Below, piece by piece: positions 12,416 to 59,788 of a stretch of 64,000 nt of DNA (its first letter is position 1; each line of letters opens with the position of its first letter). The DNA lies in assembly GCF_022045235.1 (NCBI RefSeq), contig NW_027266264.1, forward strand, positions 13,206,001 to 13,270,000. Direction: 5' to 3'. The notes under the pieces were generated by a model that had not been told where the DNA came from, did not search any database, and saw only the letters and a list, made by a program, of their open reading frames with translations. This DNA comes from Haliotis cracherodii. Its lineage: Eukaryota. The position numbers and the translations under genes were made by a program.

Positions 12416-12764
12416 GGCGTTGGAGGGGGAAACTCCTTTATATGGACCTGGAAGAGAAAAAATCATATACTTGAGATATATGTTACTGAAATGGATATGC
12501 ATAGGTAACACCATCATGTAAGCATCTCCATGGCCACAGATCGTTCTCCCCTTCTTGCTGATCTGTTTTTTATGCATATATAGGAATATCTGCTCGGATT
12601 GCCTAAATCACAACAATGTAATTTGGCTAAGACGTTTAAGGCAAGTTCCAGGTGTATCAATGATCTTATATCGTGTAATAATGGTCAAATAGCAACTTCC
12701 CTCCCACCGATTTACCCAATGTCTTTTTCATATTTATGTATGTGTATAAAGATTCAGAGTGACA

Positions 12765-22112: not shown

Positions 22113-24184
22113 TATGTTTCGGCGCATAATCAATTGTTCACTGTCTTTGACGTTTTATCTTTACGTGAACTGCGTGGATATTTCGGGCGATGGAGCTTCA
22201 TCATAAGCTCAGAAGTATTTTCCAATTATGCTAAGTAAACTGCGTAAAAATTCAAACTCCTCAACTCCCCACCACCACCCCCTACTGTGTTGCAAAACGA
22301 ACATATTTCTTAAACGTAAAACCTGTGCTTATAAACAGCAGAATCACTGCACTTGTACGCATCAGACGTAATTTACAAATAACATAATTAGATTTAGTTT
22401 CAACAAAACAAATGTCACTGGATTTTCGGGTCTAGTCTAGTTTGACTACAGGCTGCCGTCGCATTAGCAGGGATACTGCTGTGAGGTGTCAAGCAACAAC
22501 AACTTACCCTTTATGCACATTGTGTGTTCCTGCAGGTATCCGAGGTCTGGGTTAATGATACATGTCTTTTCTGATTTTCAATTATCCATTCATATCCATC
22601 CATGTTCATCACTATTTTGCGTTTTACGTCCAACTAAACTACTTCGGCAGATATTCGAAACTGATTATTTTCATGTACGTGAACATCTTTTTAGCATGCA
22701 CTATTTTGCTTCAATGCTGTATGTTTATCTTTGTGTTATACACGCGTGCGATTACCACCCTAAAGCTACGGGACATTATCAAACATACAAATCAATCAAA
22801 GTAACAAAAGCTAAATTTTACATATAGGTGTTTTAATCGTATATGTAGGGACATAGCATGACCTGTCATTGATTCATTTGAGCGTTTAACTTGCCTCGTG
22901 CGCAGGCATGCGGTGAAACAAGAATATTAATAGCATCTAAAATATTTCAGAATAATCTGATAATAATACTCAGGGCTACCACGACATAAATGAGTGGGGT
23001 TATTTATTGATATTTAATACTTCCTCCAGGAAAAATGAATAAATGTAATCTGACCAACTATTATATCAACATGTGTATGTGCGTAACAAAGCGCTCGTAA
23101 TATATGGAAAGTTTTTTTCCGGCATGATTCGGACGTTGGTAAAACCACACGATTGCAAATTATCTAATAAAGGAATATATCTTAACTTTGGATTGTAATA
23201 AAGCGTATAACAGTAATCTACCAAGACGCACCAGTAACAGTGTGAGTCGTGTTGATGTGAGCCCTTTAACACCAACTCACATGTTTGTTTGTTTGTTTGT
23301 TTTACGCCGCACTCAGCAATATTCCAGCTATATGACGGCGGTCTGTAAATAATCGAGTCTGGACCAGACAATCCAGTGTCCTGCAAAGTAAAGCCAGACC
23401 CTGAGCTCCAATACGCTCCCTCGTATTAACATTTTTGAGCTCCAGGTATCTGCATAGTAAAATATACTCAAACATTCATGAGAAACAAAATTATTCTTTC
23501 TTATTTTATTCATTTAATTTTTGGAACTATTATATAAAGTAAAGTTTTAAACCGTAGCGGTTTGAAAAAGTCTTGTCAAAGACAACGTTTTCGATTGATT
23601 TACCTTGTGGGATAAAGTTATTTATCATATAATGGGTAGGTTTCTCGGCAGGATAAAGCCAACGGATAAAAACGATATCCATTGGGGTCATATGCGGATA
23701 GAGATAAAAATATCAAAGGTCAAGTAGGGACTACTTTCACTGTTTATAAACGAACGTGGCGTCATTCGGTGATCGAGTCAGAATTAACCATCGGGAATCT
23801 GGATAAACTACAGGGATAATTGCTATCATTATCAAAAGAACAGTCTAATATACTGAAAATCAGTGTCTAACCGTGACGTAGCTAAGGCATTTTATAAGTT
23901 TGGGCAACTTTGGAGATATAAATTTCGAAACAATTTTGCGAGGGCACGAGGCCTAGCCAAGCGGGATCAGAAGCCATATTTTGTGCTTGTAGACCTCTGC
24001 GGCTTGAAACCTTCTCCACAAATTAAAATAGTTGGATTCACATATGCTCTAATTTATGTATTCCTTATTGTACATTTTCCTTCCTTAGAAAGGGTGAACA
24101 GAGGAAGAAATAATTAAGAGTTTTATTATATTGCGTGTCATATTGTTTCCCCGAGGACATTACTTGTGCTTCACATGTTTTTGG

Positions 24185-24440
24185 TAGTTTGTTGTTTAAC
24201 ACCGCACTCGGTAATATTCCAGCTATATGACGGCAGTCTGAAAACAATCGAGTCTGGACGACGTAGTCCAGTGATGAACATCATGAGCATCGATCTACGT
24301 AGTTGGGATACGATGATATGCACAGCCAAGTCAGCGAGCCGGAACCAGAACCCGTTAGTCGCCTATTACGACAAACATAGTCTCCTTTTAAGGCAAGCAT
24401 ATGTTGCTGAAGACCTTTTCTAACCGTGATCTTCACAGGG
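24185..24440 (-). mobile_element. SINE family C in the intron upstream of GPCR copy A (orthologous copies before B, C, D, E)
   Basis: Same element at ~36762-36988, 42044-42270, 57458-57690 and 62848-63074. Confidence 0.85.
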
Positions 24441-24615
24441 GTTCACATATGCGTTAATATATGCTGATCTCAGTTGGTCATACTTCAGAACTCGTTACAA
24501 GTACCAATAAAGGTCAGGTTCCAGAGAATCACATTTGAGGCATATGCAAAAAACGAAATGTGTCACTACAAACAATCATATTTGCGTTTTATTTCAGGTG
24601 ATCACCAATTCCAAC

Positions 24616-25920
24616 ATGGCCTCAAGGTTCCCAGTCATCTTCTCGGATACGACACATTTCGACAGCGACACGACAGCAGAAGTGAAGTCATCATTAAACA
24701 TCAGCGATGAGGAGAAGAACCGTTATTTATCCCACCTTGACGACTCGATGTTTCCCTTGAGGATACCAGCCGTGGTATATCTTGCCATCCTAATGGTTCT
24801 GGGTATTTTCGGAAACATTCTTGTGCTGATCGTGTACCTTAAGAAATTCAAACCAAGCCCGACCCGTGTGTTTGTGGTGTGTCTGGCTGTGTTTGACCTC
24901 ATGACATGCGTCGTTTCAATCCCAGGGGAGATCCTGGGCATGAGGTACAGTCACACGTTCGACTACCCAGCCGTGTGTAAAATAATACGATTCAACAACA
25001 CATTCTCCGTGGTGTCCTCAGCATTCACGCTCATAGCTGTTACTATAGAGAGATACAGGAAGATATGTCGGCCTTTGAACAAACAGATCACCATCAGAGT
25101 CGCGCGCATCGTGGTAGGGATCGCTGTGTCCGTATCACTAGTCTTCACCATCCCGACAGTTATTGTCAGCGGTAGGAAAACGGTCAAAACAGACAAAGAG
25201 GAAATAACAGGCTTCGAGTGTTCCTTTGACGACGGGTGGCGCGATACTCTGTTCCCCGTGGTCTATATAGGAGTCGAATTCCTTATCTTCTTCGGTTCTC
25301 TGACTGTCCTGGTAGTTATGTACATCCTCATTGGCAGGACTGTGTTTAAACACCGGAAATTTAAATTCCGTCCGGTCAAGGATACGGAACATCACTCTTC
25401 GAATTACACAACCGAGACGTCATTTAAAGATGGAACTGAGAATGGGATCGCCTTCCGTAACATATCGTCACCCACAGCTACTTGCAATATTTCCAATTCA
25501 AACAATGGGACGCTTGGTTTTGACGGTTCGTCTGAGACAAGTTGTACATGTATGAATGACACCTCAGCACAACCCAAGACGTGTAAAGAAGACAAATCCT
25601 CGAATAGTGTGAGATCCATAAGAAATAATGCTGCAAAACCAAAAGAAAAATCAAGGCCCAGAGCGATGAAAACAACGCTTATGTTGTTCATCATCACAGT
25701 GGTGTTCATCATCAGTTTCTTACCTCATCTGATCCTGATGATAACTCGATTTATCAAATCCGACTTTCTGGACTCTTTACAAGGAGCAGGATTCATGGTA
25801 TATAATATATTCCTACGCTCATACTTCATACAGAGTGCAGTTAACTGCATTGTGTACAGTTTCTGCAATGAAAGATTCAGAAATGAGTGGAGGAAACTAC
25901 TCGTTTCTTGTTATCGTTGA
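24616..25920 (+). CDS. Class A GPCR tandem copy A (type I, 434 aa)
   Basis: Acceptor TTTTATTTCAG ends at 24597; AACATGG start at 24616. 7 TM, GN, LAVFD, IERYRKICRP, long Ser/Thr-rich ICL3, SFLP, NCIVY. Confidence 0.93.
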   Translation: MASRFPVIFSDTTHFDSDTTAEVKSSLNISDEEKNRYLSHLDDSMFPLRIPAVVYLAILMVLGIFGNILVLIVYLKKFKPSPTRVFVVCLAVFDLMTCVVSIPGEILGMRYSHTFDYPAVCKIIRFNNTFSVVSSAFTLIAVTIERYRKICRPLNKQITIRVARIVVGIAVSVSLVFTIPTVIVSGRKTVKTDKEEITGFECSFDDGWRDTLFPVVYIGVEFLIFFGSLTVLVVMYILIGRTVFKHRKFKFRPVKDTEHHSSNYTTETSFKDGTENGIAFRNISSPTATCNISNSNNGTLGFDGSSETSCTCMNDTSAQPKTCKEDKSSNSVRSIRNNAAKPKEKSRPRAMKTTLMLFIITVVFIISFLPHLILMITRFIKSDFLDSLQGAGFMVYNIFLRSYFIQSAVNCIVYSFCNERFRNEWRKLLVSCYR

Positions 25921-27697
25921 GGGAAAGCAGCTGATATGTAAGACACGGGAGGAAAGTTTGGAACATAAACAGAACACATTGTCATGTGATGAACGCACAA
26001 CAAACATGTTCAATCATCGGTTAAATGTTTTGCTGTTCATTCCATGCGTTACGGAACGATGACACTTGGATGAATAAATCGTTACAATTTGTTGATAATC
26101 ACAACTTGACGGATGGCTGCCGCTATACAACGATCAATGAAGAGAGACGTGACTTATTGTGACGTTATACATTTATGATACATGTAACACCGTCAAGAAG
26201 CACCAAGGACACGACTTCAGAAACTGCAACGTTGTCTTCTCTGGACCACCTGAGACTGAGAGATTGTCTGCACAAGATGGGTCCACGACAGGAACTGCTA
26301 TGCCTTGTACCGAGACATCCCCATAAAGCCCTATTCTATCTATTTAATTTATCTGTTATCACCTGCTACATCCCCAGTTGACATATTAATAACTTTTAAG
26401 GCATACAGCGACCTGATATAATTTTCAGTAATCTCGACTATCAACATGNNNNNNNNNNNNNNNNNNNNNNNNNNNNNNNNNNNNNNNNNNNNNNNNNNNN
26501 NNNNNNNNNNNNNNNNNNNNNNNNNNNNNNNNNNNNNNNNNNNNNNNNNNNNNNNNNNNNNNNNNNNNNNNNNNNNNNNNNNNNNNNNNNNNNNNNNNNN
26601 NNNNNNNNNGTTACATATATCACATGTAAAATAAGCATCCTGAAACACATGGACGACTAGTAACCAACTGTTCTTCATATGCTGATATTAACACATGTTG
26701 CAGTGGGATCGAAACGATGACTGGAAGGATAGGCTGTTTAGATGTATGTATGTGGAAGACAGCACGGATTGTAACATTGTACCACTAGTTTACCATTATA
26801 ACATCGTAACACCAGTTTACCACGAATCTGATTCTAATGAACGTCATTCATTATCATGCCAACATATCAGATTCAACTCATGTCAGAACTCAACAGATGT
26901 CACTGTATTCCAAGTATCACTTTACACATACACGTAGAAAAGGATGTTTTGCTATTTAGTATCTCAAATAACATGTTTATCACACCCAGAAACCGCAATA
27001 AATATTCAAAATCGATATCTTCAGGATCACGAGTAGCACAGCTACAAGTAAATTTGTAAACGGAAGGTCGAGTCTCCCACTCATTGGTCGCTCGACCTAA
27101 TGTTTTCCAGTAACGACTGCTCGTAAATGCAACATATTGATAGTGATATCATGAATATTTTATGCACGGATAAGTTGTAATGGATAAGTTGCAAACGTTT
27201 CATTCGAGTTATATACGTGCATGTCAATATTTTACTGTCTTTTGATGTTAAGGTGATCTAATTCTTGTGATTTTCAAATTGAAACATTGTTAGACATATT
27301 TATGCTTCACAATTGTATCAGGAAATAAATAAAATCTCACTCTGTTGTCTCTTGTTATCACATACGTATAAACCAACATCTGTCCATCAAAATAATACAC
27401 AGACTGGAAACATTTCTCCTTTCATCGACTCGTGTTTCAATATTTACATTTAGTACTAACTACTAAATGACTTTATCGCGCGTATCCAAACCATGGGCTA
27501 ATTACGTCTGTAACCCAATCACCCCTCGTAACTCAATCACCCCGGGCCACCACTCGGCACCGTGCCCGGGGAATAATCCCGCGCAAGCATCATCCCGCCC
27601 TTTGTTAGTCCGTCATTCGCGAGCAGCCCTTCCCCAAGTACACACGTGTGTCACTGTATCTAATCGCTTTCCCATTTTACGTTTCCTTTGTACCCAG

Positions 27698-27832
27698 TCG
27701 CGAACGTTTCGCCGATTACGCTTTGAATACCATCTATTCCAACACTCGCCGTATCGCATTTACACAATCGCGACCGTTTCGCCGATTACGCTTTGAATAC
27801 CATCTATTTCAGCACTCGCCGTATCGCATTTA
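27698..27832 (+). repeat. 2 x 70-bp direct repeat in the 5' leader of the retrotransposon
   Basis: TCGCGA(A/C)CGTTTCGCCGATTACGCTTTGAATACCATCTATT... at 27698 and 27768. Confidence 0.9.
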
Positions 27833-27910
27833 TTCCGCTCTACTCCCGAACTTCACCCTCGGGACAATTTACGCTTGTGGAATACCAACTCACCACCCCG
27901 ACTTTTCGTG

Positions 27911-29056
27911 ATGCCTCCCAAGAGAAGAGCAACCGTCAACCACAAGCTTGTGAGGGGAGCCAAGCAGGCCAGGACAACCAGAAGACAAACCCCGGGAGTA
28001 CACATTGTACTGGAGACAACAGCTGATGGCGAGTCTGCCAATTACGGAAATATCGAAGGTGGCAACAGAATTAACGTACAATCGGCGCAGCTTGTAAATG
28101 CCGCGCAGGTTGCCAACTCGGCTACCCAGGTAAACGAGCAACTGGGAAAAATACTCCAGTTGCTGGAACATACAGCGCCCGGCCCGGTTAGCGCAAACCA
28201 ACAGGTAAGGCTTGGTTTTAGTTCTCCCGCCATTTCGCCCAACATAGGGAGAATCCCCGATGCGCACAACGAGGCCGACGGTGACGCGGCCCCAGCCAAT
28301 CACATCGCCGGATACGGGGATTCCCTTTCCTTCCGTGCGGACGGAATAGACGCGCACGTCAAACAACAGGTGAGGGAAAAAATCTGGCCTGGCGAGTATG
28401 TCGACCTCGGCACAATACTACCAAACACCGAGGGAAGTCACGAGGACGGTACGATTACCATGGCGTATGACTCCTCAGGTAAGGTAATTTTTAAACCAAT
28501 AAAACAGCAACCAAAGCGCCTGTCCCTGGCAAGCTGGACTTCAGCTTTCCACATTTTCATGTGTACTTACGTTAGTAGGCACTCCGAGGTCCGCACAACC
28601 CAAGGGTTGCTGTCCTACATGGAAACCATAAGAACGGCGGCACTTCGATTCGGGGGGGATGCCTGGTCAACCTACGACCAACAATTCCGACACAGAATGT
28701 CAAGGGACCCCTCACGACGCTGGGACAACATCGACGGGGAGTTGTGGCTGAAGTACATGGTAACACAGCCGGTACTACAACCAGAATCAGGCGGACGGGG
28801 CGCAATGACACGCGTACAGGGGGACATCGCCAGTCAGGTATGCTGGGATTTCAATAAATTTGGCTGTAGCAGGGTCAACTGTAAGTACACTCACAAATGC
28901 GGTAAGTGTGGCAAACATTCCCATAGCTCTAGGACCTGCTTTCGAGGGAATGGGGTCCAACCGACCCCATACAAGCCCAATCAGCCCTTTCCTAACAGAA
29001 AACCAGCCGGCAAGGCAGGTAAATTCAGTGGCCCCTTCCCCCGTGGATCTCAATGA
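27911..29056 (+). CDS. gag: Gag-like ORF1 of the YR retrotransposon
   Basis: Starts MPPKRR. Carries KIW.GEYVDL, W..YD.QFR and C-terminal CWDFNKFGCSRVNCKYTH + CGKCGKHSHSSRTC zinc fingers, typical of DIRS/Ngaro ORF1. Confidence 0.88.
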   Translation: MPPKRRATVNHKLVRGAKQARTTRRQTPGVHIVLETTADGESANYGNIEGGNRINVQSAQLVNAAQVANSATQVNEQLGKILQLLEHTAPGPVSANQQVRLGFSSPAISPNIGRIPDAHNEADGDAAPANHIAGYGDSLSFRADGIDAHVKQQVREKIWPGEYVDLGTILPNTEGSHEDGTITMAYDSSGKVIFKPIKQQPKRLSLASWTSAFHIFMCTYVSRHSEVRTTQGLLSYMETIRTAALRFGGDAWSTYDQQFRHRMSRDPSRRWDNIDGELWLKYMVTQPVLQPESGGRGAMTRVQGDIASQVCWDFNKFGCSRVNCKYTHKCGKCGKHSHSSRTCFRGNGVQPTPYKPNQPFPNRKPAGKAGKFSGPFPRGSQ

Positions 29057-30646
29057 AATGGCACCCTGGTTACGCCAATATGCTAGGGTCAATTACAGAG
29101 ATGCAAATTATTTATGGGTAGGTTTTAGCTTTGGCTTTAAGCTCGAGTTCTAGGGAAGCCGCACGGGTCGCCTGGCACGAAACTTGCGATCAGCCACACA
29201 CCAAGATACGGCAGGCTACGTGAAACAAAAACTACAAAAGGAAGTCGACCTTGGCAGGATGGCGGGCCCCTTCAAGGACACCCCCCTAGACAACCTCCAA
29301 GTATCCCCAATAGGCCTGGTGACCAAGAAGCAGCCAGGATATGGTCAGCACCTGGGTAAGCATGCGGAGGAATTCCGTCTAATTCACCATCTATCCTATC
29401 CCAGGGGTAAATCTATAAATGACTTCATAGACACAGAGGCCTGCTCCGTTGTGTACGCCAGATTTGATGAAGCTACCCAGATGGTGCAACAACTGGGAAA
29501 GGGAGCATTACTAGCAAAATTCGACATTCAGTCGGCCTTTAGAATTATACCAGTCCACCCATCCGATTTCGAGCTGCTAGGCATCAGATTCGAATTGAGT
29601 TCTATTTCGATAAATGCTTACCATTTGGCTGCTCCATATCTTGCGCCATATTTGAAACGTTTAGTACCTTCTTGCAATGGTGCATGCAATCGCATCTTCC
29701 AACGTGTCCGGTCATGCATTACCTGGATGACTTCCTAACGGGGGGCAGAGCAGGCACCAGCCACTGCTCAGACAACCTCAACGGATGCGTGAATACACTT
29801 GAACAGCTTGGGGTTCCTATTGCGCACGACAAGACGGTGGGCCCCACAACCAAACTGACATTCCTAGGGCTGGAAATCGACACCATTGCAATGCAGATCA
29901 GAATCCCAGAGCCCAAGATCAAGGAGGCAACAAGGGAAATCCAAGACATCCTGTCAACAGGTAACATCAAGGTCACAAAAAGGGCCCTTCAGTCCCTCAT
30001 AGGCAAGCTTAACTTTATGTGCAGGGCTATACCAATGGCAAGGGCATTCAGCCGCAGGCTAATCGATCTGCTTAGCAAAGGTAAGCAACCATTTCACCAC
30101 ATTAGGATTACCAGCTGGGTCAAGGAAGACCTACAAATGTGGTTAACATTTCTTACGAGTTATAACGGCATTTCAGTGTTTCAGGACCAACTATGGGTGG
30201 ACAGCGATTTCCTCCAGCTGTTTTCAGACGCAGCGGGTGGCGCCGGCTTTGGGGCCTACATGCAGGGCAAATGGTTTAACGGCGCATTGCCACCCCAGTG
30301 GGTGACGGATGGAACTACACGGGACTTGACGCTCCTGGAGCTGTTCCCCATCACACTGGCCATCCAAATCTGGGGCAAGCAACTCGCAAACAAAAAGGTC
30401 CTCTTTTACTGCGACAACCAAGCCGTCGTAACAATAATCAACAAGCAGTCAACCAAGGCCCCCAGAGTGATGAGCCTACTCCGTCGCCTAATCCTGCAGT
30501 GTCTCCGATATAATATTATGTTTAAGGCAAAGTATGTATGTTCCACTGCTAACACTATTGCCGATGCTCTCTCGAGGTTTCAGCTCAAACGCTTCCGAGA
30601 GGATCAGAACCCCACACCTATCCCGTGCAACATATGGCTGATCTGA
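28860..30646 (+). pseudogene. pol: Reverse transcriptase-RNase H ORF with one in-frame stop and one frameshift
   Basis: GFSFGFKLEF*G (TAG 29151-29153), GRMAGPF, SPIGLV.KK, FRLIHHLSYP, AKFDIQSAF; frameshift near 29598 (should read FYFDKCLPFG); HYLDDF; RNase H motifs FSDAA, LELFPI, CDNQAVV, IADALSR. Start position uncertain. Confidence 0.92.
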
Positions 30647-31557
30647 GGCAGGAAGCCGGCAGACTCCTACAACAATCTCTGTCTACTAATACATGGGCCA
30701 CTTACCAAACAGGCATCAATGCCTTGCACCAGTTCCGGTCCGCACACCAGCTACAAGAGGTGTGGCCAGTCCCGCTGGATCAGGTCGTAAACTTTATTGC
30801 TTATCTGTCAGTCACTCACCACTCCCCTAACACAGTCAAGACTTACATTGCAGCGCTGTCTTCACACCACAAATTCCACGGGCTCACCGACTGTACAAAC
30901 CATTTCCTGGTAGGCAAGATTGTAACCGGCTTACACAAATCAGCGGGCCGACCAGACACCAGAAAACCGATCACTGCAGATCTGCTGCAGGTAGTAACCA
31001 ACAATCTGCCTCACGTATGCTCATCAGCATATGAAGCCAGGCTGTTCAAGGCAGTCTACTGCACAGCATTCTTCGGTTTCTTTAGGGTTAGCGAACTCGT
31101 CCAAACTGGACCCTCAAAAACAGGTTGCGCCATCCAGAATTTAAGCTTCTCGGGCAACCCCCAGCAGCTTTCAATCCATTTACCACACTCAAAGTCTGAT
31201 CAGTACAGGATGGGGACAACAGTTACAATGTCACCTATACCAGGTAATCCGCTATGTCCGGTAGTCGCCATCAAGCACTACCTGGAGGCGCGCCCCTCCG
31301 GCCCACAACATGCATTCGTCCACTTTGACCATTCCCCCGTTACAAGGTACCAATTCCAGGCACTCCTAAAAAAGGCCTTAGCACACAGCAACATAAACAC
31401 GGCCTGCTATTCTTCGCACTCCTTCCGCATTGGGGCAGCCACATCAGCAGCCATGAACGGGGTGCCTGAACACCTCGTACAACAATACGGCAGGTGGAAA
31501 TCAGATTGCTACAATGCTTACATACGCTTACCAACAAATTCAATGTTGCACAATTAA
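30634..31557 (+). CDS. Tyrosine recombinase (phage integrase family), intact
   Basis: Catalytic set FRVSE (R), SKSDQ (K), HSFR, GRW and Y in DCYNAY; overlaps the end of RT-RH. Confidence 0.95.
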   Translation: MADLRQEAGRLLQQSLSTNTWATYQTGINALHQFRSAHQLQEVWPVPLDQVVNFIAYLSVTHHSPNTVKTYIAALSSHHKFHGLTDCTNHFLVGKIVTGLHKSAGRPDTRKPITADLLQVVTNNLPHVCSSAYEARLFKAVYCTAFFGFFRVSELVQTGPSKTGCAIQNLSFSGNPQQLSIHLPHSKSDQYRMGTTVTMSPIPGNPLCPVVAIKHYLEARPSGPQHAFVHFDHSPVTRYQFQALLKKALAHSNINTACYSSHSFRIGAATSAAMNGVPEHLVQQYGRWKSDCYNAYIRLPTNSMLHN

Positions 31558-31604
31558 ATCAAATAGTCTTTCATGGTACTTACTACACTTCTTATTGTTT
31601 ACAG

Positions 31605-32149
31605 TTTGGATGGTGGGATCCAGCTACATGGCCAGGGCTAGGCAGTACTTGCTCCTGAAGGGCACCAGCCCGAACCAACCGAGGATGCTATGGCTGGCAC
31701 GAGGGGGGATGAGGTGGAAGGAGCTGGACACCATTCTGGATGCACAGGTCAAGGCGACACGGCGTAGCCCCAGAGCCCTCATCATTCACCTGGGCTCCGA
31801 CGACCTGTGCTCGGTCAAAGGCAGCCAACTCTACCTTGACATGGTGGCATCAGTCCTTCGGATACAACTCCAGCTTCCTGACACCAAGATCATCGTATCC
31901 TCAATGCTGCCCAGGCGCTACTGGCACGATGCCAGGGATCCACGAAAGATCGAGGGGATGCGGAAGAATATCAACCGCCGACTGACCAACCGAGTCAAAG
32001 AGCTCGGCGGTACAACAGTGCCACATCCCCAGATCCTGGCATCTGACAAGACATGGTACGCCTGGGAGGGCGTCCACCTCAGTGACAAAGGACTGTGTGT
32101 GTTTACGGACAATTTATTGCATGCCCTGGCGCTCGTTTTGCGCCAGTAA
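31605..32149 (+). CDS. SGNH/GDSL hydrolase-like ORF of the retrotransposon
   Basis: Blocks VGSS, RGG, IHLGSDD and EGVHL correspond to GDS / G / GxND / DGxH. Begins after a strong splice acceptor (AG at 31603-31604); first ATG is 31610. Confidence 0.85.
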
Positions 32150-33527
32150 GGATATTATCTCCACAGGTTAGTGTTTCCTTTCAGTACATAAGCAAGCCGG
32201 GCAACAATGCTATCTCCGCGTATCGCGTGGCCGTGGGTGTGGGGTAGCACTCTGGTACTTTGTGGCGGGGTTCTTGTGGGCTACACTGCTAGTAACAAAT
32301 TAACTTGCTTCCAAATTAATACTCGTGCTTAAGGCTACCTGCTTTTCAGCGGGAACCTTTCCGGGGTTACCTGCTTCTCAGTGGGAACCTTGTCTTCCCG
32401 ACTTTTCAGCCGGGGAATCGTAGAATAACATACGTTGGGGCAAACAGTTGCCACGTATATGGGCCCGGCGGCGGAAGTCGTCTTGTCAAGCGGTAGCTGA
32501 CAGTTGGGTCCGCGGCGGGAGCCGCACAATGGTTTTGCAAATGGGGCCGGGCAGTGGGATCTGCTTTGGCCGTCTACCTGGGGCCGGGCAGCGGCAGTCT
32601 GACTTAGGCCAGCAGCGTGGAGCTGCTTTTGGCAACGTGGGAGTTGCCAAGCAATGGTAGCGTTTAAATATGCTACCGTGGGGGCCGGACAGCGGTAGCA
32701 GTCTCAGGCCAGCAGCGCTAGCTGCAATCGCCGTCGGCCACGCGCGTGGCCATGGCAACGGTAGCATTTTTGGTATATACAATTAGCAGCTAAGTAGCCC
32801 ACTAGTACCTGCACACCCTCGGCCATTTAACCCAATCTCATCTTCTGTTTTATTACAGGCACGGGCACCAACGGCTCGGTGGCCCGTGCCTCTCCTTGGC
32901 ATATCGCGGGATAATTGATATCAAAAGCCACCTTAGTGAGATTATATCTGTACGGAAGCGTAGTAGGGCACGGTGAATTGTTTTGTCAAAGTATCTGCCA
33001 CGAAGGACTTATTATCTCCTACGTAGGACTTACTATGGACTAGAATAACTATATCCTACGTAGGACTTAGTATGGACTAGAATAACCATCTCCTACGTGG
33101 GACTTAGTATCTCCTACGTAGGAGATAGTAAGTCCTACGTAGGAAATAGAATATAACCTTTTATTCCTCCATAAAGAAGAGTACAAAAAAAGCAGAAACT
33201 AATAGATGAACATTTATCAGAACAACATATTATTTTGCATGAAATATGCAGAATGGTAATGCTGATGTATTGAGAGTTAGTTGAACACCATTTTAAACAT
33301 TGGCTTGACATATTTTACACACACTCGTGCAAAGTCATCAGCATCTTTGTCACATAGTCTGTAATCTGTTCTACAAGACAACATGCATTCAGTGAGCTTT
33401 GCTGAGTCCATACCATGCAGGTAGCAGCTAAAGTCGACATCACCGATATTGATCAACTCCATCCAGAGCTGATCACGAATATCGCACGTACATCGCACGT
33501 GTTATCACATACGTATAAACCAACATC

Positions 33528-35166
33528 ATCATCGTATCCTCAATGCTGCCCAGGCGCTACTGGCACGATGCCAGGGATCCACGAAAGATCGAGGGGATGC
33601 GGAAGAATATCAACCGCCGACTGACCAACCGAGTCAAAGAGCTCGGCGGTACAACAGTGCCACATCCCCAGATCCTGGCATCTGACAAGACATGGTACGC
33701 CTGGGAGGGCGTCCACCTCAGTGACAAAGGACTGTGTGTGTTTACGGACAATTTATTGCATGCCCTGGCGCTCGTTTTGCGCCAGTAAGGATATTATCTC
33801 CACAGGTTAGTGTTTCCTTTCAGTACATAAGCAAGCCGGGCAACAATGCTATCTCCGCGTATCGCGTGGCCGTGGGTGTGGGGTAGCACTCTGGTACTTT
33901 GTGGCGGGGTTCTTGTGGGCTACACTGCTAGTAACAAATTAACTTGCTTCCAAATTAATACTCGTGCTTAAGGCTACCTGCTTTTCAGCGGGAACCTTTC
34001 CGGGGTTACCTGCTTCTCAGTGGGAACCTTGTCTTCCCGACTTTTCAGCCGGGGAATCGTAGAATAACATACGTTGGGGCAAACAGTTGCCACGTATATG
34101 GGCCCGGCGGCGGAAGTCGTCTTGTCAAGCGGTAGCTGACAGTTGGGTCCGCGGCGGGAGCCGCACAATGGTTTTGCAAATGGGGCCGGGCAGTGGGATC
34201 TGCTTTGGCCGGCTACCTGGGGCCGGGCAGCGGCAGTCTGACTTAGGCCAGCAGCGTGGAGCTGCTTTTGGCAACGTGGGAGTTGCCAAGCAATGGTAGC
34301 GTTTAAATATGCTACCGTGGGGGCCGGACAGCGGTAGCAGTCTCAGGCCAGCAGCGCTAGCTGCAATCGCCGTCGGCCACGCGCGTGGCCATGGCAACGG
34401 TAGCATTTTTGGTATATACAATTAGCAGCTAAGTAGCCCACTAGTACCTGCACACCCTCGGCCATTTAACCCAATCTCATCTTCTGTTTTATTACAGGCA
34501 CGGGCACCAACGGCTCGGTGGCCCGTGCCTCTCCTTGGCATATCGCGGGATAATTGATATCAAAAGCCACCTTAGTGAGATTATATCTGTACGGAAGCGT
34601 AGTAGGGCACGGTGAATTGTTTTGTCAAAGTATCTGCCACGAAGGACTTATTATCTCCTACGTAGGACTTACTATGGACTAGAATAACTATATCCTACGT
34701 AGGACTTAGTATGGACTAGAATAACCATCTCCTACGTGGGACTTAGTATCTCCTACGTAGGAGATAGTAAGTCCTACGTAGGAAATAGAATATAACCTTT
34801 TATTCCTCCATAAAGAAGAGTACAAAAAAAGCAGAAACTAATAGATGAACATTTATCAGAACAACATATTATTTTGCATGAAATATGCAGAATGGTAATG
34901 CTGATGTATTGAGAGTTAGTTGAACACCATTTTAAACATTGGCTTGACATATTTTACACACACTCGTGCAAAGTCATCAGCATCTTTGTCACATAGTCTG
35001 TAATCTGTTCTACAAGACAACATGCATTCAGTGAGCTTTGCTGAGTCCATACCATGCAGGTAGCAGCTAAAGTCGACATCACCGATATTGATCAACTCCA
35101 TCCAGAGCTGATCACGAATATCGCACGTACATCGCACGTGTTATCACATACGTATAAACCAACATC
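33528..35166 (+). repeat. 1639-bp tandem duplicate of 31889-33527 (retrotransposon 3' end plus host flank)
   Basis: Constant 1639 offset (e.g. ORF ends 32149 and 33788); one substitution seen (32573 T vs 34212 G). Confidence 0.95.
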
Positions 35167-35884
35167 TGTCCATTAAAATAATACACAGACTGGAAACATT
35201 TCTCCTTTCATCGACTCGTGTTTCAATATTGGATATCAAAAGCCACCTTTGAGAGATTTTATCTGTACGGAAGCGTAGTAGGGCACGGTGAATTGTTTTG
35301 TCAAAGTATCTGCTACGTAGGACTTAGTATGGCCTAGAATTACTATCTCCTACGTAGGACTTACTATGGACTAGAATAACTATCTCCTACGTGGAAAGGT
35401 GGGGCATGGGTCTTCTTCTACTTTTGCATAATGCAAATACTTGTTCTGGTTCATAACATGAAATCGTGTGGTTGACATAGAGTGACCGTTTTATAATTAC
35501 AAGATTAAACGCTAGATACAATATATCATATCTAATTTCATCGATGTATGTACATGGTTTTCCCTAGGCTCTAATATCGGACCGTTATCGTGACTGTGTC
35601 TACTAGAAACGTTTTGGAGATCTTTGCATCCCCTCCCACTCCTCACAGAAACACTGGATGTTAGGCTACTTAAATATACCAACACTGACAGCAAACTAGA
35701 TTTCACTCCCTACATGCGATCGATTTGACCAGAAGCCACGGATGTGGTGTNNNNNNNNNNNNNNNNNNNNNNNNNNNNNNNNNNNNNNNNNNNNNNNNNN
35801 NNNNNNNNNNNNNNNNNNNNNNNNNNNNNNNNNNNNNNNNNNNNNNNNNNNNNNNNNNNNNNNNNNNNNNNNNNNNNNNNNNGT

Positions 35885-36266
35885 TGAGTTGAGTTGAGGT
35901 GATGCGAGCGGGGAAGCGAGGCGAGGCGAGGCAAGGTGAGGAGAGGTGAAATGGGGTTTAACGTCGCGTCCAAGATTATTACACTTATAAAGCGACGTGC
36001 ATTCAATGACTGATGACGATTAATACTGCTAGCCCACGGAGATAACATCCTGCAGTTTAACACGAATACCCGACTCAGACATACTACTCACAGTATACTG
36101 ACTCCAAGTTGACCAGTCCTTGTTTTAGCCCCGTAATGCCCAACGCGAGACAGGGTAACAACAAGTACCATATTTTAACGTCTTCTTGTATGACGCGGCC
36201 GGGGATCGAATTCCGAAACGTCCGCTCTCCTGGCGGACGCTCTACCGCTAGACCACGGAGGCGGTT
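35885..36266 (-). mobile_element. SINE family D full length (also 41107-41549 and 61876-62351)
   Basis: Minus-strand tRNA head ACCGCCTCCGTGGTCTAGCGGTAGAGCGTCCGCC...TTCGATCCCCGGCCGCGTC, with pentanucleotide tails (CTCAC/CTCAA/GCACC)n. Confidence 0.85.
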
Positions 36267-37156
36267 GCCATGGATGTGAAGATTCATGCATGTGATTAAG
36301 CCAACACATTCGTTATTCTTCATCAGCAATACAAACCCTAGCTATATGTACGACTAAATCATGCTCTATTCAAATATGAGGACGCTTTTTTATGACATGT
36401 CAAATACAGGGAACACTTCCTGGTTGATAGAAATGCGTTCTTTTCAGTTTACACATAACAAAGGGAGCATTTAAGCTGGGCATACATACAACTGCAACGA
36501 GAAGGGGTGTCACGACATACGGGTAAGTACAGTTCTAGAAAACGACATCTTGCATCCATTGCATCTGAAACAATATTGTGGTGTGTGAGTTCGGTTTAAC
36601 GCCGCTTTTAAAAGTGTTCCAGTTATATCGCGGCGTGTCAGCTTAATGTGGAAGGAAAGCCCGAAGTGGTGCACGTCTCAGACATTTCCCACTTCGGTGA
36701 AACCCACGAGCATGGGTATGGTGCTGACAAACCTAGAAATATAATCGGGGCGAACCGGGATCCAGCTGTATGACGGCGGTATGCAAGTAATCGAAGCTGG
36801 ACCACACAATCCAGTAATTGAGATTATGAGCATCGATCTACGCAGTAGGGATACGATGACATGCATCAACCATGTCAGCGAGCCTGACAACCAGAACCCG
36901 TTAGTTGCCTTTTACGACAAACATAGTCGCCTTTTACGGCAAGCATATGTTGCTGAAAACCTATTCTACCCGTGATCTTCACATGGGTTCACATATGCGT
37001 TAGTATATGCTGATCTCAGTTGGTCATACTTCACATCTCGTTACAAGTACCAATAGTAAGGGTTCAGAGTATCACATTTGAGGCATATGAAAAACGAAAT
37101 ATGTCACTACAAACAATCATATTTGCGTATCATTTCAGGTGATCACCAAATCCAAT

Positions 37157-38464
37157 ATGGCCTCAAAGTCGCCAGTCATCTTCTCGGATACGACACATTT
37201 TGGTGTAGACAACACGACAGCGGAAGTGACGTCATCATTAAATATCAGCGATGAGGAGAAGAACCGTTATCTATCCCACCTTGACGACTCGATGTTTCCC
37301 TTGAGGATACCAGCCGTGGTATATCTTGCCATCCTAATGGTTCTGGGTTTTTTCGGAAACATTCTTGTGCTGATCGTGTACCTTAAGAAATTCAAACCAA
37401 GCCCGACCCGTGTGTTTGTGGTGTGTCTGGCTGTGTTTGACCTCATGACATGCGTCATTTCAATCCCAGGGGAAATCCTGGACATGAGGTACAGTCACAC
37501 GTTCGACTACCCAGCCGTGTGTAAAATGATACGATTCAACAGCACATTCTCCGTGGTGTCCTCAGGATTCACGCTCATAGCTGTTGCTATAGAGAGATAC
37601 AGGAAGATATGTCGGCCTTTGAACAAACAGATCACCATCAGAGTCGCGCGCATCATGGTAGGGATCGCTGTGTCCGTATCACTAGTCATCCCCATCCCGA
37701 CAGTTATTGTCAACGGTAGGAAAACGGTCAAAACAGACAAAGAGGAAATAACAGGCTTCGAGTGTTCCTTTGATGACGGGTGGCGCGATACTCTGTTCCC
37801 CGTGGTCTATATAGGAGTCCTATTCCTCATCTTCTTCGGTTCTCTGAGTGTCCTGGTAGTTATGTACATCCTCATTGGCAGGACTGTGTTTAAACACCGG
37901 AAATTTAAATTCCGTCCGGCAAAGGATACGGAACATCACTCTTCGAATTACACAACCGAGACGTCATTTAAAGATGGAACTGAGAATGGGATCGCCTTCC
38001 GTAACATATCGTCACCCACAGCTACTTGCAATATTTCCAATTCAAACAATGGGACGCTTGGTTTTGACGGTTCGTCTGAGACAAGTTGTACATGTATGAA
38101 TGACACCTCAGCAAATCCCAAGACGCGTAAAGAAGACAAATCCTCGAATAGTGTGAGATCCATAAGAAATAATGCTGCAAAACCAAAAGAAAAATCAAGG
38201 CCCAGAGCGATGAAAACAACGCTTATGTTGTTCATCATCACAGTGGTGTTCATCATCAGTTTCTTACCTCATCTGATCCTGATGATAACTCGATTTATCA
38301 AATCCGACTTTCTGGACTCTTTACAAGGAGCAGGATTCATGGTGTATAATGTATTCCTACGCTCATACTTCATACAGAGTGCAGTTAACTGCATTGTGTA
38401 CAGTTTCTGCAATGAAAGATTCAGAAATGAGTGGAGGAAACTACTCGTTTCTTGTTATCGTTGA
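37157..38464 (+). CDS. Class A GPCR tandem copy B (type II, 435 aa)
   Basis: Intact ORF; acceptor ends at 37138; same motifs as copy A. Confidence 0.93.
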   Translation: MASKSPVIFSDTTHFGVDNTTAEVTSSLNISDEEKNRYLSHLDDSMFPLRIPAVVYLAILMVLGFFGNILVLIVYLKKFKPSPTRVFVVCLAVFDLMTCVISIPGEILDMRYSHTFDYPAVCKMIRFNSTFSVVSSGFTLIAVAIERYRKICRPLNKQITIRVARIMVGIAVSVSLVIPIPTVIVNGRKTVKTDKEEITGFECSFDDGWRDTLFPVVYIGVLFLIFFGSLSVLVVMYILIGRTVFKHRKFKFRPAKDTEHHSSNYTTETSFKDGTENGIAFRNISSPTATCNISNSNNGTLGFDGSSETSCTCMNDTSANPKTRKEDKSSNSVRSIRNNAAKPKEKSRPRAMKTTLMLFIITVVFIISFLPHLILMITRFIKSDFLDSLQGAGFMVYNVFLRSYFIQSAVNCIVYSFCNERFRNEWRKLLVSCYR

Positions 38465-41400
38465 GGGAAAGCAGCTGATATGTAAGACACGGGAGGAAAG
38501 TTTGGAACATAAACAGAACACATTGTCATGTGATGAACGCACAACAAACATGTTCAATCATCGGTTAAATGTTTTGCTGTTCATTCCATGCGTTACGGAA
38601 CGATGACACTTGGATGAATAAATCATAACAATTTGTTGATAATCACAACTTGACGGATGGCTGCCGCTATACAACGATCAATGCAGAGAGACGTGACTAA
38701 TTGTGACGTTATACATTTATGATATATGTAACACCGTCAAGAAGCAACAAGGAGACGACTTCAGAAACTGCAACGTTGTCTTCCCTGGACCACCTGAGAC
38801 TGAGAAATTGTCTGCACAAGATTGGACCACGACAGGAACTGCTATGCCTTGTACTGAGACATCCTCATTAACCCCTATTCTATCTATTAAATTTATCTGT
38901 TATCACCTGCTACATCCGCAGTTGACATATTAATAACTTTTAAGGCATACAGCGACCTGATATAATCTTCAGCAATCTCGACTACCCAGTGCAGTGATGC
39001 TATCGCTATATTATACATTTATCTCTATATTATACATATATATCTATGACCCTTGGTGCACTTTGATACATATATCACATGTAAAATAAGCATCCTGAAA
39101 CACATGGACGACTAGTAACCAACTGTTCTTCATATGCTGATATTAACACATGTTGCAGTGGGATCGAAACGATGACTGGAAGGATAGGCTGTTTAGATGT
39201 ATGTATGTGGAAGACAGCACGGATTGTAACATTGTACCAATAGTTTACCATTATAACACCGTAACACCAGTTTACCATGAATCTGATTCTAATAAATGTC
39301 ATTCATCATCATGCCAACATATCAGATTCAACTCATGTCAGAACTCAACAGATGTCACTGTATTCCAAGCATCACTTTACACATACACGTAGAAAAGGAT
39401 GTTTTGCTATTTATCTCAAATAACATGTTATTCACACCCAGAAACCGCAATCAATATTCAAAATCGATATCTTCAGGATCACGAGTAGCACAGCTACAAG
39501 TAAATTTGTAAACGTAAGGTCGAGTCTCCCACTCATTGGTCGCTCGACCTAATGTTTTCCAGTAACGACTGCTCGTAAATGCAACATATTGATAGTGATA
39601 TCATGAATATTTTATGCACGGATAAGTTGTAATGGATAAGTTGCAAACGTTTCAGTCGAGTTATATACGTGCATGTCAATATTTTACTGTCTTTTGATGT
39701 TAAGGTGATCTAATTCTTGTGATTTTCAAATTGAAACATTGTTAGACATATTTATGCTTCACAATTGTATCAGGAAATAAATAAAATCTCACTCTGTTGT
39801 CTCTTGTTATCACATACGTATAAACCAACATCTGTCCATCAAAATAATACACAGACTGGAAACATTTCTCCTTTCATCGACTCGTGTTTCAATATTTGAT
39901 ATCAAAAGCCACCTTAGTGAGTTTATATCTGTACGGAAGCGTAGTAGGGCACGGTGAATTGTTTTGTCAAAGTATCTGCCACGAAGGACTTATTATCTCC
40001 TACGTAGGACATACTATCTCCTACGTAGGACTTACTATGGACTAGAATAACTATATCCTACGTAGGACTTAGTATGGACTAGAATAACCATCTCCTACGT
40101 GGGACTTAGTATCTCCTACGTAGGAGATAGTAAGTCCTACGTAGGAAATAGTATATAACCTTTTATTCCTCCATAAAGAAGAGTACAAAAAAAGCAGAAA
40201 CTAATAGATGAACATTTATCAGAACAACATATTATTTTGCATTAAATATGCAGAATGGTAATGCTGATGTATTGAGAGGTAGTTGAACACCATTTTAAAC
40301 ATTGGCTTGACATATTTTACACACACTCGTGCAAAGTCATCAGCATCTTTGTCACATAGTCTGTAATCTGTTCTACAAGACAACATGCATTCAGTGAGCT
40401 TTGCTGAGTCCATACCATGCAGGTAGCAGCTAAAGTCGACATCACCGATATTGATCAACTCAATCCAGAGCTGATCACGAATATCGCACGTACATCGCAC
40501 GTGTTATCACATACGTATAAACCAACATCTGTCCATCAAAATAATACACAGACTGGAAACATTTCTCCTTTCATCGACTCGTGTTTCAATATTGGATATC
40601 AAAAGCCACCTTTGAGAGATTTTATCTGTACGGAAGCGTAGTAGGGCACGGTGAATTGTTTTGTCAAAGTATCTGCTACGTAGGACTTAGTATGGCCTAG
40701 AATTACTATCTCCTACGTAGGACTTACTATGGACTAGAATAACTATCTCCTACGTGGAAAGGTGGGGCATGGGTCTTCTTCTACTTTTGCATAATGCAAA
40801 TACTTGTTCTGGTTCATAACATGAAATCGTGTGGTCGACGTAGAGTGACCGTTTTATAATTACAAGATTAAACGCTAGATACAATATATCATGTCTAATT
40901 TCATCGATGTATGTACATGGTTTTCCCTAGGCTCTAATATCGGACCGTTATCGTGACTGTGTCTACTAGAAACGTTTTGGAGATCTTTGCATCCCCTCCC
41001 ACTCCTCACAGAAACACTGGATGTTAGGCTACTTAAATATACCAACACTGACAGCAAACTAGATTTCACTCCCTACATGCGATCGATTTGACCAGAAGCC
41101 ACGGATGTGGTGTGGTGTGGTGCGGTGCGGTGCGGTGCGGTGCGGGGTAGGGAGGGGTGAGTTGAGTTGAGTTGAGTTGAGGTGATGCGAGCGGGGAAGC
41201 GAGGCGAGGCGAGGCAAGGTGAGGAGAGGTGAAATGGGGTTTAACGTCGCGTCCAAGATTATTACACTTATAAAGCGACGTGCATTCAATGACTGATGAC
41301 GATTAATACTGCTAGCCCACGGAGATAACATCCTGCAGTTTAACACGAATACCCGACTCAGACATACTACTCACAGTATACTGACTCCAAGTTGACCAGT

Positions 41401-42438
41401 CCTTGTTTTAGCCCCGTAATGCCCAACGCGAGACAGGGTAACAACAAGTACCATATTTTAACGTCTTCTTGTATGACGCGGCCGGGGATCGAATTCCGAA
41501 ACGTCCGCTCTCCTGGCGGACGCTCTACCGCTAGACCACGGAGGCGGTTGCCATGGATGTGAGGATTCATGCATGTGATTAAGCCAACACATTCGTTATT
41601 CTTCATCAGCAATACAAACCCTAGCTATATGTACGACTAAATCATGCTCTATTCAAATATGAGGACGCTTTTTATGACATGTCAAATACAGGGAACACTT
41701 CCTTGTTGATAGAAATGCGTTCTTTTCAGTTTACACATAACAAAGGGAGCATTTAAGCTGGGCATACATACAACTGCAACGAGAAGGGGTGTCACGACGT
41801 ACAGGTAAGTACAGTTCTAGAAAACGACATCTTGCATCCATTGCATCTGAAACAATATTGTGGTGTGTGAGTTCGGTTTAACGCCGCTTTTAAAAGTGTT
41901 CCAGTTATATCGCGGCGTGTCAGCTTAATGTGGAAGGAAAGCCCGAAGTGGTGCACGTCTCAGACATTTCCCACTTCGGTGAAACCCACGAGCATGGGTA
42001 TGGTGCTGACAAACCTAGAAATATAATCGGGGCGAACCGGGATCCAGCTGTATGACGGCGGTATGCAAGTAATCGAAGCTGGACCACACAATCCAGTAAT
42101 TGAGATTATGAGCATCGATCTACGCAGTAGGGATACGATGACATGCATCAACCATGTCAGCGAGCCTGACAACCAGAACCCGTTAGTTGCCTTTTACGAC
42201 AAACATAGTCGCCTTTTACGGCAAGCATATGTTGCTGAAAACCTATTCTACCCGTGATCTTCACATGGGTTCACATATGCGTTAGTATATGCTGATCTCA
42301 GTTGGTCATACTTCACATCTCGTTACAAGTACCAATAGTAAGGGTTCAGAGTATCACATTTGAGGCATATGAAAAACGAAATATGTCACTACAAACAATC
42401 ATATTTGCGTATCATTTCAGGTGATCACCAAATCCAAT

Positions 42439-43746
42439 ATGGCCTCAAAGTCGCCAGTCATCTTCTCGGATACGACACATTTCGGTGTAGACAACACGAC
42501 AGCGGAAGTGACGTCATCATTAAATATCAGCGATGAGGAGAAGAACCGTTATCTATCCCACCTTGACGACTCGATGTTTCCCTTGAGGATACCAGCCGTG
42601 GTATATCTTGCCATCCTAATGGTTCTGGGTTTTTTCGGAAACATTCTTGTGCTGATCGTGTACCTTAAGAAATTCAAACCAAGCCCGACCCGTGTGTTTG
42701 TGGTGTGTCTGGCTGTGTTTGACCTCATGACATGCGTCATTTCAATCCCAGGGGAAATCCTGGACATGAGGTACAGTCACACGTTCGACTACCCAGCCGT
42801 GTGTAAAATGATACGATTCAACAGCACATTCTCCGTGGTGTCCTCAGGATTCACGCTCATAGCTGTTGCTATAGAGAGATACAGGAAGATATGTCGGCCT
42901 TTGAACAAACAGATCACCATCAGAGTCGCGCGCATCATGGTAGGGATCGCTGTGTCCGTATCACTAGTCATCCCCATCCCGACAGTTATTGTCAACGGTA
43001 GGAAAACGGTCAAAACAGACAAAGAGGAAATAACAGGCTTCGAGTGTTCCTTTGATGACGGGTGGCGCGATACTCTGTTCCCCGTGGTCTATATAGGAGT
43101 CCTATTCCTCATCTTCTTCGGTTCTCTGAGTGTCCTGGTAGTTATGTACATCCTCATTGGCAGGACTGTGTTTAAACACCGGAAATTTAAATTCCGTCCG
43201 GCAAAGGATACGGAACATCACTCTTCGAATTACACAACCGAGACGTCATTTAAAGATGGAACTGAGAATGGGATCGCCTTCCGTAACATATCGTCACCCA
43301 CAGCTACTTGCAATATTTCCAATTCAAACAATGGGACGCTTGGTTTTGACGGTTCGTCTGAGACAAGTTGTACATGTATGAATGACACCTCAGCAAATCC
43401 CAAGACGCGTAAAGAAGACAAATCCTCGAATAGTGTGAGATCCATAAGAAATAATGCTGCAAAACCAAAAGAAAAATCAAGGCCCAGAGCGATGAAAACA
43501 ACGTTTATGTTGTTCATCATCACAGTGGTGTTCATCATCAGTTTCTTACCTCATCTGATCCTGATGATAACTCGATTTATCAAATCCGACTTTCTGGACT
43601 CTTTACAAGGAGCAGGATTCATGGTGTATAATGTATTCCTACGCTCATACTTCATACAGAGTGCTGTTAACTGCATTGTGTACAGTTTCTGCAATGAAAG
43701 ATTCAGAAATGAGTGGAGGAAACTACTCGTTTCTTGTTATCGTTGA
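42439..43746 (+). CDS. Class A GPCR tandem copy C (type II, 435 aa)
   Basis: Intact ORF, 5282 bp after copy B; differs from B by L->F in KTT(L/F)M. Confidence 0.93.
   Translation: MASKSPVIFSDTTHFGVDNTTAEVTSSLNISDEEKNRYLSHLDDSMFPLRIPAVVYLAILMVLGFFGNILVLIVYLKKFKPSPTRVFVVCLAVFDLMTCVISIPGEILDMRYSHTFDYPAVCKMIRFNSTFSVVSSGFTLIAVAIERYRKICRPLNKQITIRVARIMVGIAVSVSLVIPIPTVIVNGRKTVKTDKEEITGFECSFDDGWRDTLFPVVYIGVLFLIFFGSLSVLVVMYILIGRTVFKHRKFKFRPAKDTEHHSSNYTTETSFKDGTENGIAFRNISSPTATCNISNSNNGTLGFDGSSETSCTCMNDTSANPKTRKEDKSSNSVRSIRNNAAKPKEKSRPRAMKTTFMLFIITVVFIISFLPHLILMITRFIKSDFLDSLQGAGFMVYNVFLRSYFIQSAVNCIVYSFCNERFRNEWRKLLVSCYR

Positions 43747-59710: not shown

Positions 59711-59716
<6 letters not shown>

Positions 59717-59788
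<72 letters not shown>
59717..59788. repeat. (TA)n microsatellite
   Basis: Directly visible; the orthologous position after copy A is the N gap 26449-26609. Confidence 0.95.

Follow-up and report, generated by a model that had tools for sequence, protein, structure and literature searches.

A predicted RNA fold in the split direct repeat of a Ngaro retrotransposon from Haliotis cracherodii as a candidate 3'-end switch

The window, i.e., the whole stretch of DNA that was analysed, comprises 64,000 nt of the Haliotis cracherodii genome (GCF_022045235.1, NW_027266264.1:13,206,001-13,270,000, forward strand). The region under study, 32150-32914, comprises 115 nt of upstream sequence and the B repeat of a Ngaro (tyrosine-recombinase) retrotransposon; the element is young and adds a new member to a known group. 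The ends of the element were set by 30 left and 30 right flanks. The following features were identified:

27444-32914, plus strand: Ngaro copy of the form A1-ORFs-B1, lacking A2-spacer-B2 and a target duplication
27444-27674, plus strand: split direct repeat A1, which reappears as A2 right behind B1 in 16 of 30 loci
27447-27485, plus strand: half of the B|A junction hairpin that lies in A, with its inner stem at 27447-69 and its outer arm at 27472-85; ATAA-N6-TTAK...N6-TTAT in 7 of 7 families
27797-29056, plus strand: gag-like ORF with a weak CCCH zinc-finger match (PF22628, E 0.002, below the cut-off)
28809-30646, plus strand: RT/RNase H gene (PF00078, E 2.5e-9)
30553-31557, plus strand: tyrosine recombinase ORF (PF00589, E 3.9e-8; PF02899)
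31457-32149, plus strand: SGNH/GDSL hydrolase ORF (PF13472, E 6e-6, below the curated cut-off)
32265-32914, plus strand: split direct repeat B1 (650 nt), defined by family flanks and repeat layout
33789-34553, plus strand: second copy of the region, generated by a 1639-bp tandem duplication (31889-33527 and 33528-35166, 99.9% identity)
20033-20478, minus strand: older, 5'-truncated B fragment with intact 3' end (93% identity)

The element encodes RT/RNase H and a tyrosine recombinase, and no DDE integrase was found; its five ORFs gave no match to a methyltransferase domain. The family has direct repeats, and no long inverted repeats of the DIRS1 type with an ICR were found. The left flanks carry a T at -3 in 28 of 30 cases and an A at -2 in 29 of 30, which is a short identity with the circle junction. 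Empty sites near 39892, 45157, and 60640 within the window revealed that this insertion occurred without target duplication. The RT/RNase H gene is fragmented in this copy by a stop codon at 29151-53 and a frame change between the ORFs at 29154 and 29543. Two tandem repeats of 70 nt are located between A1 and gag (27680-27832). The element resides within one unit of a host tandem duplication with units of about 5.3 kb (24054-26448, 35883-45485, and 57327-64000). Each unit contains an intronless rhodopsin-family GPCR ORF (37091-38464, which was profile-scanned, with copies at 24511, 42373, and 57791), and additional GPCR ORFs are found at 3834-4982 and 11270-12607. A palindromic TCCTACGTAGGA-type array in the host flank (32992-33149) is present again in other duplication units. 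The 1639-bp duplication (31889-35166) is very recent, covers the 3' end of the element and its flank, and is possibly an assembly artefact.

A genome search for the element yielded 316 candidates, 40 of which were scored, all being 99-100% identical. Among the 30 family-1 loci returned, 16 have the full A1-ORFs-B1-A2-spacer-B2 layout, and the other 14, including the window copy and its duplicate, end after the first B. In the 16 loci the 3' end of the element is followed by its first 230 nt, a spacer of about 295 nt, and 32265-32914 again. Searches with two hydrolase proteins uncovered six further families (f2-f7), and the hydrolases of the families are 35-57% identical. At least one copy of each of the seven families exhibits the A1-ORFs-B1-A2-X-B2 layout (X, spacer), with B lengths of 320-680 nt and A2-B2 spacers of 100-300 nt. 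Because the family carries this layout, the region is not a substitute for repeats: the preliminary description was wrong in regarding it as a replacement of missing terminal repeats, since it is itself the B split direct repeat. A metagenome scan returned 12 loci, and the 3' sequence was read in five: L203 contains the whole fold described below, L202 breaks off early, and L201, L205, and L206 had nothing usable. L203 stems from another organism, its hydrolase is 34% identical, and it has the same junction.

Several variations of the layout were observed. Solo A-spacer-B elements are common (L231, L235, L239, L242, and many of L243-L302), B2 is present without an upstream B1 in 12 of 30 family-2 and 15 of 30 family-3 spacer loci, and extra tandem A or A-spacer-B units occur in L028, L219/L220, and L120. 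The A2/spacer border of families 1-6 is a CCCACCC-type run of varying length (L013:2495-2515), G-rich on the minus strand, which might serve for priming or as a stop signal. Families 1 and 2 have kept a 3' splice-site-like ACAG|GTACCAG in their spacers (L013:2560-2625; L113 spacer).

The region 32150-32914 had been proposed to form a large closed structure, and its predicted folding energy of -320.2 kcal/mol is indeed better than that of shuffled sequences (z -4.28, 0 of 20 shuffles as good). With 12 shuffles the z value was -4.89, compared to +1.6 to -3.1 for 13 other stretches of 765 nt, six of them from the same element. The fold and the adjacent elements are composed of the following parts:

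32227-32245, plus strand: 5' arm of helix P1, specific for B1 and outside the repeat; replaced in B2 by an arm at the spacer end
32246-32268, plus strand: P2 hairpin (GCAC-N4-GTGC type) and conserved TGGCR linker, in which B begins; also in L203
32269-32293, plus strand: 5' strands of P3 and P4; start of the B1/B2 hand-over zone
32294-32781, plus strand: looped-out domain of repeated small hairpins, the number and length of which vary between families
32782-32826, plus strand: 3' strands of P4, P3, and P1 in the predicted fold
32829-32856, plus strand: putative 3' end of the RNA when in B2 (CCA, about 32832-34), then a U-rich tract; from aborted insertions, one contig break, and spacing
32857-32891, plus strand: terminal hairpin in the predicted fold
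32899-32914, plus strand: B-side half of the junction hairpin, with the crossover directly after ATAA; from flanks and the layout of the seven families

Four segments had been suggested to close the structure. Three of them are predicted for the window copy with high pair probabilities, i.e., 32228-41:32812-25 (13/14, p 0.92), 32276-84:32794-802 (9/9, p 1.0), and 32286-93:32782-89 (8/8, p 0.95), in contrast to 32254-59:32804-09 (p 0.0). The latter depends on an A at 32257, which is present in only three loci, the window copy and its tandem duplicate among them, versus a G in 130 loci. In the relatives, the bases 32254-59 are part of a small hairpin, and the partner of 32804-09 is 32269-74; P2 is broken in the window copy by a private change. 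The inner hairpins and the terminal hairpin reported before are present in the predicted fold. The GNRA character of the loops is not conserved, because 17 of 28 older copies have a T at 32519 and the homologous loops of other families are GCAA, TCAA, or AATA. The sequence changes cited for the older fragment at 20 kb could be recovered, but they are one-sided wobble transitions and are therefore weak evidence for pairing on their own. As the antisense strand also beats the shuffles, the z value alone does not indicate the strand; the hand-set stems contain 11 G-U versus one A-C pair, which favours the sense strand. For the same reason, a minus-strand reading of P3 as a "cryptic ICR" was dropped.

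All seven families fold better than shuffled sequences, with z values of -3.1 to -11.7 for the sense strand, and this is also true for the antisense strand. Common to the families are the closing helix P1, the small hairpin P2, the TGGCR linker, and the long helix P3; the predicted fold of B1 of family 6 is devoid of P1. When one copy of each of the seven families was compared, the P3 strands paired with their own partners at 95 of 112 positions, which was equalled by only 6 of 5040 partner swaps (the best register was chosen per family, which favours this result). At least two Watson-Crick pair types occur in 12 of the 16 P3 columns. In a MAFFT alignment of eight sequences from five families, pairing is seen in 87% of the cells, and two-sided changes occur in 5 of 35 pairs. 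The number of cells with double changes in this five-family alignment surpassed 500 of 500 shuffles, whereas its covariation score was not significant (126/500) and its pair count not clearly so (36/500). The recurrence of the closing helices with compensatory changes in seven families supports the view that the structure is selected and functional.

Could the folding simply be a functionless by-product of duplicated palindromic DNA motifs? The inner domain consists of tandem-duplicated motifs, which inflates the z value, the antisense strand scores equally, and one control stretch reached a z of -3.1. However, the long-range helices covary across families despite the divergence of their hydrolases, and they recur in another organism, as exemplified by L203 (z -3.4). 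We regard this explanation as extremely improbable.

B2 lacks the P1 5' arm, because B starts in the linker. At the end of the spacer, families 1-6 contain AATAAA, 1-4 nt, and an arm that is predicted to pair with the P1 3' strand (6 of 6, and thus 6 of 7 families overall) and to close B2 with p 0.37-1.0. Among 720 swaps, the own-family pairing of this arm takes rank 2, and in 6 of 6 families no other 15-mer of A2 plus X scores better than the arm. Compared to composition shuffles the pairing is strong in families 1, 3, and 4 (12, 2, and 1 of 1000) and weak in families 2, 5, and 6 (158, 60, and 93 of 1000). The closing helix is followed by 9-12 nt ending with CCA and then by a U-rich tract. 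Between the hexamer and this site there are 10-15 unpaired nt (15 nt in family 6), compared to about 280-610 nt along the linear sequence. In families 1-6, B1 has no AATAAA between the stop codon and the junction; family 2 has three ATTAAA there. The spacer end of family 7 contains neither hexamer nor arm. Instead, an AATAAA is found inside B (B+275), with CCA and a U-rich tract 17 nt behind it, and the B1 arm is predicted to cover the CCA/U-rich site. L203 resembles family 7, with ATTAAA.

Based on these predictions we propose that the B fold is a 3'-end switch, which would distinguish the two identical repeats by structure-bridged polyadenylation similar to that of HTLV-1, a reading that we hold to be rather probable, with considerable room for doubt. 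In B2, the fold would be closed by the spacer arm, and AAUAAA, located about 585 nt upstream, would come to lie beside the likely cleavage site at about 32832-34. In B1, the other arm, which has no AAUAAA, would close the same strand, and transcripts would read through. The proposal presumes that the fold forms in vivo and that the hexamer is used at a distance. The hexamer lies outside of B in six of seven families, a juxtaposing fold is predicted and appears to covary, and the position of the RNA end is deduced only from aborted copies. The window copy, missing the spacer and B2, would be devoid of a bridged signal.

Alternatively, the fold might be nothing but a packaging or reverse transcription signal, with inner hairpins that bind Gag, a three-way junction that serves as RT template switch or for plus-strand priming, and an incidental link to AATAAA. 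This agrees with the finding that B starts within the conserved linker in all seven families, irrespective of where the hexamer lies, and with the recurrence of small hairpin motifs inside the looped-out domain of families 1-5. It also fits the finding that, among 32 older family-1 copies, changes common to at least four copies break pairs less often than private changes (9/45 versus 136/336, p 0.008). When the young copy was folded, 0 of 21 common changes were pair-breaking, a value biased by this choice; folding of two old copies gave 5/21 and 5/22. Such a signal gives no reason for the position of the hexamer right next to the closing arm in 6 of 6 families, nor for its shift to the inside of B in the arm-less family 7. 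We therefore judge an exclusive packaging or RT signal to be quite unlikely; as a second role it is compatible with the bridging model.

The closed domain has also been considered as an intron, with a donor-like site at 32166, an acceptor-like site at 32858, and ends brought into proximity by the helix. While upstream donor-like GT motifs and a pyrimidine tract with AG exist in four of the first five families, family 5 has no AG there, and B2 has the fold but no such donor, which makes splicing very improbable. A search with a spliced-copy pattern had 0 matches in the genome and no joint was found in the contigs of four runs; these blanks carry no weight as evidence.

Truncated copies were used to locate the RNA end for which the bridging model calls, after the site had been predicted to lie at 32830-45. 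Family 1 has 22 distinct truncated B ends (88 are intact), and two independent copies stop at one and the same base, 32832; none of the ends in families 2-7 is at the site. In these copies, L091/L307 (with L332) and L303, the left end is normal, the right end falls at 32831-32, and target duplications of 17 and 12 nt, respectively, are present. A third copy with a duplicated target, L312, ends 50 nt earlier near 32783 (target duplication of 21 nt). The check for target duplications comprised 14 truncated loci, nine with a usable left end, and 14 intact controls, none of which had a repeat of more than 9 nt. These one-ended insertions combine a precise recombinase-type left end with a truncated right end, and the family normally makes no duplications. 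The truncated copies may represent failed insertions, the free end of which would mark the start of the cDNA and thus the end of the RNA. One contig breaks at 32833, which is only a weak hint, because it is a single contig and a search of the genome did not recover the joint. No fossil copy with a poly(A) tail was detected among the fetched loci or by a pattern search of the genome, and no poly(A) junction was present in the contigs of four runs; none of these runs is on record as RNA, and contigs are unsuited to reveal where an RNA ends.

Self-cleavage would be another possible source of a discrete DNA end at 32832, and the primer of DIRS-order elements is described as unknown (PMC7192593). 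A catalytic or protective role might thus be envisaged, e.g., as a ribozyme that cleaves itself, as a 3' end that primes its own extension, or as a poly(A)-binding loop of the ENE type. However, a scan with the Rfam covariance models over 27300-33100 gave no match (best E 1.9), and the lack of conservation of the GNRA loops speaks against it as well. The ENE triple helix has a conserved U-rich internal loop between helices (PMC12501189), whereas the internal loops of P3 have at most 3 unpaired nt per side, are paired in most families, and are U-rich in few. A catalytic or protective role is therefore highly improbable. Of the functional element suggested in the preliminary description, the selected structure has gained support from the covariation over seven families, while the evidence leans to RNA 3'-end formation and repeat regeneration over catalysis.

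The comparison of B1 and B2 encompassed 20 intact family-1 pairs of the 30 loci, after exclusion of eight incomplete loci and two with a damaged B2. Ten private variants from B+66 to +627 are common to B1 and B2 of the same copy. The sole recurrent B2-specific variant is at +6, in 11 of the 20 copies; an older copy shares one at +35. Because private variants are shared and the recurrent B2-specific variant is found only at +6, most of B2 is normally replaced by a copy of B1, almost to its start. The hand-over between B2-derived and B1-derived sequence is near the B start, after +8 in 11 copies and, in two copies, by +35 and +66. Two independent family-2 copies have retained a 4-nt deletion at B+51-55, within an AT repeat, that is present in B1 but not in B2, from which it follows that B2 was inherited to at least 66 nt past the hexamer. 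B1 and B2 of family 7 are identical over 369 nt, with the hexamer at +275.

A hand-over this close to the start would be expected if the spacer AATAAA were an ordinary signal and the RNA were cut a short distance behind it. The end of the RNA would then lie within the first tens of bases of B2, dock on the B1 closing strand, and guide the transfer that rebuilds B2. In families 1-6, B begins 11-15 nt past the hexamer, and a G/U-rich tract is present at the ordinary distance behind it. Such a short RNA end would be the simple account of the re-copying of B2, and the long end would need displacement synthesis back to the junction. Yet inheritance of B2 extends to +55 in family 2, as judged from a single lineage event within an AT repeat, and the aborted insertions extend to +569 and +520. 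In addition, the family-7 repeats are identical upstream of their internal hexamer, and therefore identical repeats do not require a short RNA. Cleavage near the hexamer appears to be unlikely, but it deserves to be taken seriously.

The bridging model is backed by the layout, the covarying helices, the hexamer plus arm in six of seven families, the lack of AATAAA in B1 of families 1-6, the arrangement in family 7 and L203, the ends at 32832, and the B2 sequence inherited past the hexamer in family 2. Several observations count against it, i.e., the unpaired spacing of 10-15 nt, which is smaller than the 15-23 nt quoted in PMC12789967, the lack of a poly(A) junction in the contigs, the fetched loci, and the genome pattern search, the G/U-rich tract near the hexamer, the origin of most of B2 as a copy of B1, the end of L312, the fact that only 2 of 22 ends are at the site, the weak arm pairing in families 2, 5, and 6, the covariation score of the five-family alignment, and the three ATTAAA in B1 of family 2. 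In the subsequent steps of the model, minus-strand cDNA would begin at the RNA end at about 32832-34. After the jump to A2, RT would re-copy B1 and displace the first copy of B2 back to the P2-linker-P3 junction. The recombinase would next insert the product at the folded B|A junction.

In all seven families, this B|A junction is made up of ATAA, a 6-nt spacer, and TTA, followed by a short loop and then by the same arrangement in mirror image. When folded, it forms two stems around the partly unpaired 6-nt spacer (7 of 7 families), and the crossover is located at the border of an internal loop. The targets match solely left of the crossover, and the DNA folding energies of the junction indicate no strand preference. 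Complementarity of 27572-83 and 32211-23 to the extreme 3' end had been noticed before, and both can indeed pair (-15.2 and -14.7 kcal/mol, respectively), but the conserved partner is 27472-85 (-16.6 kcal/mol). Compared to 27572-83, the junction hairpin is the better account of the 5'-3' complementarity. None of 30 left ends (L031-L060) has B upstream, which argues that insertion uses B2|A1 and not the identical internal B1|A2.

Folded single-stranded sites of tyrosine recombinases are well known from the integron attC and the CTXphi attP, and dif-type cores have the arrangement TAA-N6-TTA. The B|A junction is similar in its TAA-N6-TTA spacing and in the two predicted stems around a partly unpaired 6-nt spacer. 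It differs in belonging to a eukaryotic retroelement and in the absence of a strand preference of the DNA fold. The Ngaro cycle as a whole might thus proceed on folded single strands: a two-state RNA clamp would bridge the hexamer over up to 610 nt and mark the RT hand-over, and one strand would be joined at the attC-like junction. We consider this extended scheme possible but doubtful. If true, the products of failed events would have a precise end on one side, an end at the RNA 3' terminus on the other, and a target duplication. The replication of retrotransposons with split direct repeats (Ngaro, PAT, VIPER) rests on models, and in the literature found experiments exist for DIRS-1 only. The locus yields base-level predictions for the RNA end, the discrimination of identical repeats, the RT hand-over, and the recombinase cut.

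Ngaro elements are defined by the A1-ORFs-B1-A2-B2 layout (PMC9210276). The Xenopus element DIRS-53_XT, a Ngaro-like tyrosine recombinase element with an SGNH hydrolase, likewise has gag, RT/RNase H, tyrosine recombinase, and hydrolase in overlapping ORFs, and elements of this type have A1 on the left, B1-A2-B2 on the right, and copies with lost repeats (PMC9210276). Solo AB repeats have also been reported for the Cafeteria elements (PMC8547959). In contrast to the Ngaro-like elements of PMC9210276, with a B of 152 bp, B comprises 320-680 nt here and a spacer of 100-300 nt separates A2 and B2; neither an RNA structure nor a poly(A) site nor a fold of the junction is described for them in the available text of that source. 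DIRS-1 of Dictyostelium, for which a single-stranded cDNA is known, is also a tyrosine recombinase retrotransposon with an RNA that lacks the element ends; an internal copy of the junction between end and start serves to rebuild them (PMC7192593). However, it has inverted repeats with an ICR (PMC7192593), whereas direct split repeats and no match to a methyltransferase were found here. Our literature searches, the results of which did not include the founding Ngaro papers, returned no description of the fold, of Ngaro polyadenylation, or of an RNA structure.

The closest parallel to the proposed switch is found in viruses. Structure-bridged polyadenylation by the Rex response element was reportedly described by Ahmed et al. 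in 1991. In HTLV-1 a fold bridges a hexamer outside of the repeat over 228 nt (PMC3694450, PMC12789967). As proposed here, only the last repeat of HTLV-1 and HTLV-2 as well as BLV has the hexamer, and a long fold, the Rex response element, is proposed to carry it to the distant cleavage site and a U/GU-rich element (PMC3694450, PMC12789967). The differences from HTLV-1 are the lack of sequence homology and of a Rex-like protein, a gap of up to about 610 nt, the use of the hexamer, which is only predicted here, and a closing arm that is outside of the repeat and exists in two versions. If true, the mechanism would be a variant of one known from deltaretroviruses, of which none was found described for Ngaro. 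HTLV-type 3'-end formation would then have evolved independently in a cellular retrotransposon, providing both the RNA end and the strand-transfer point, and a poly(A) signal acting over about 600 nt would more than double the distance bridged in HTLV-1.
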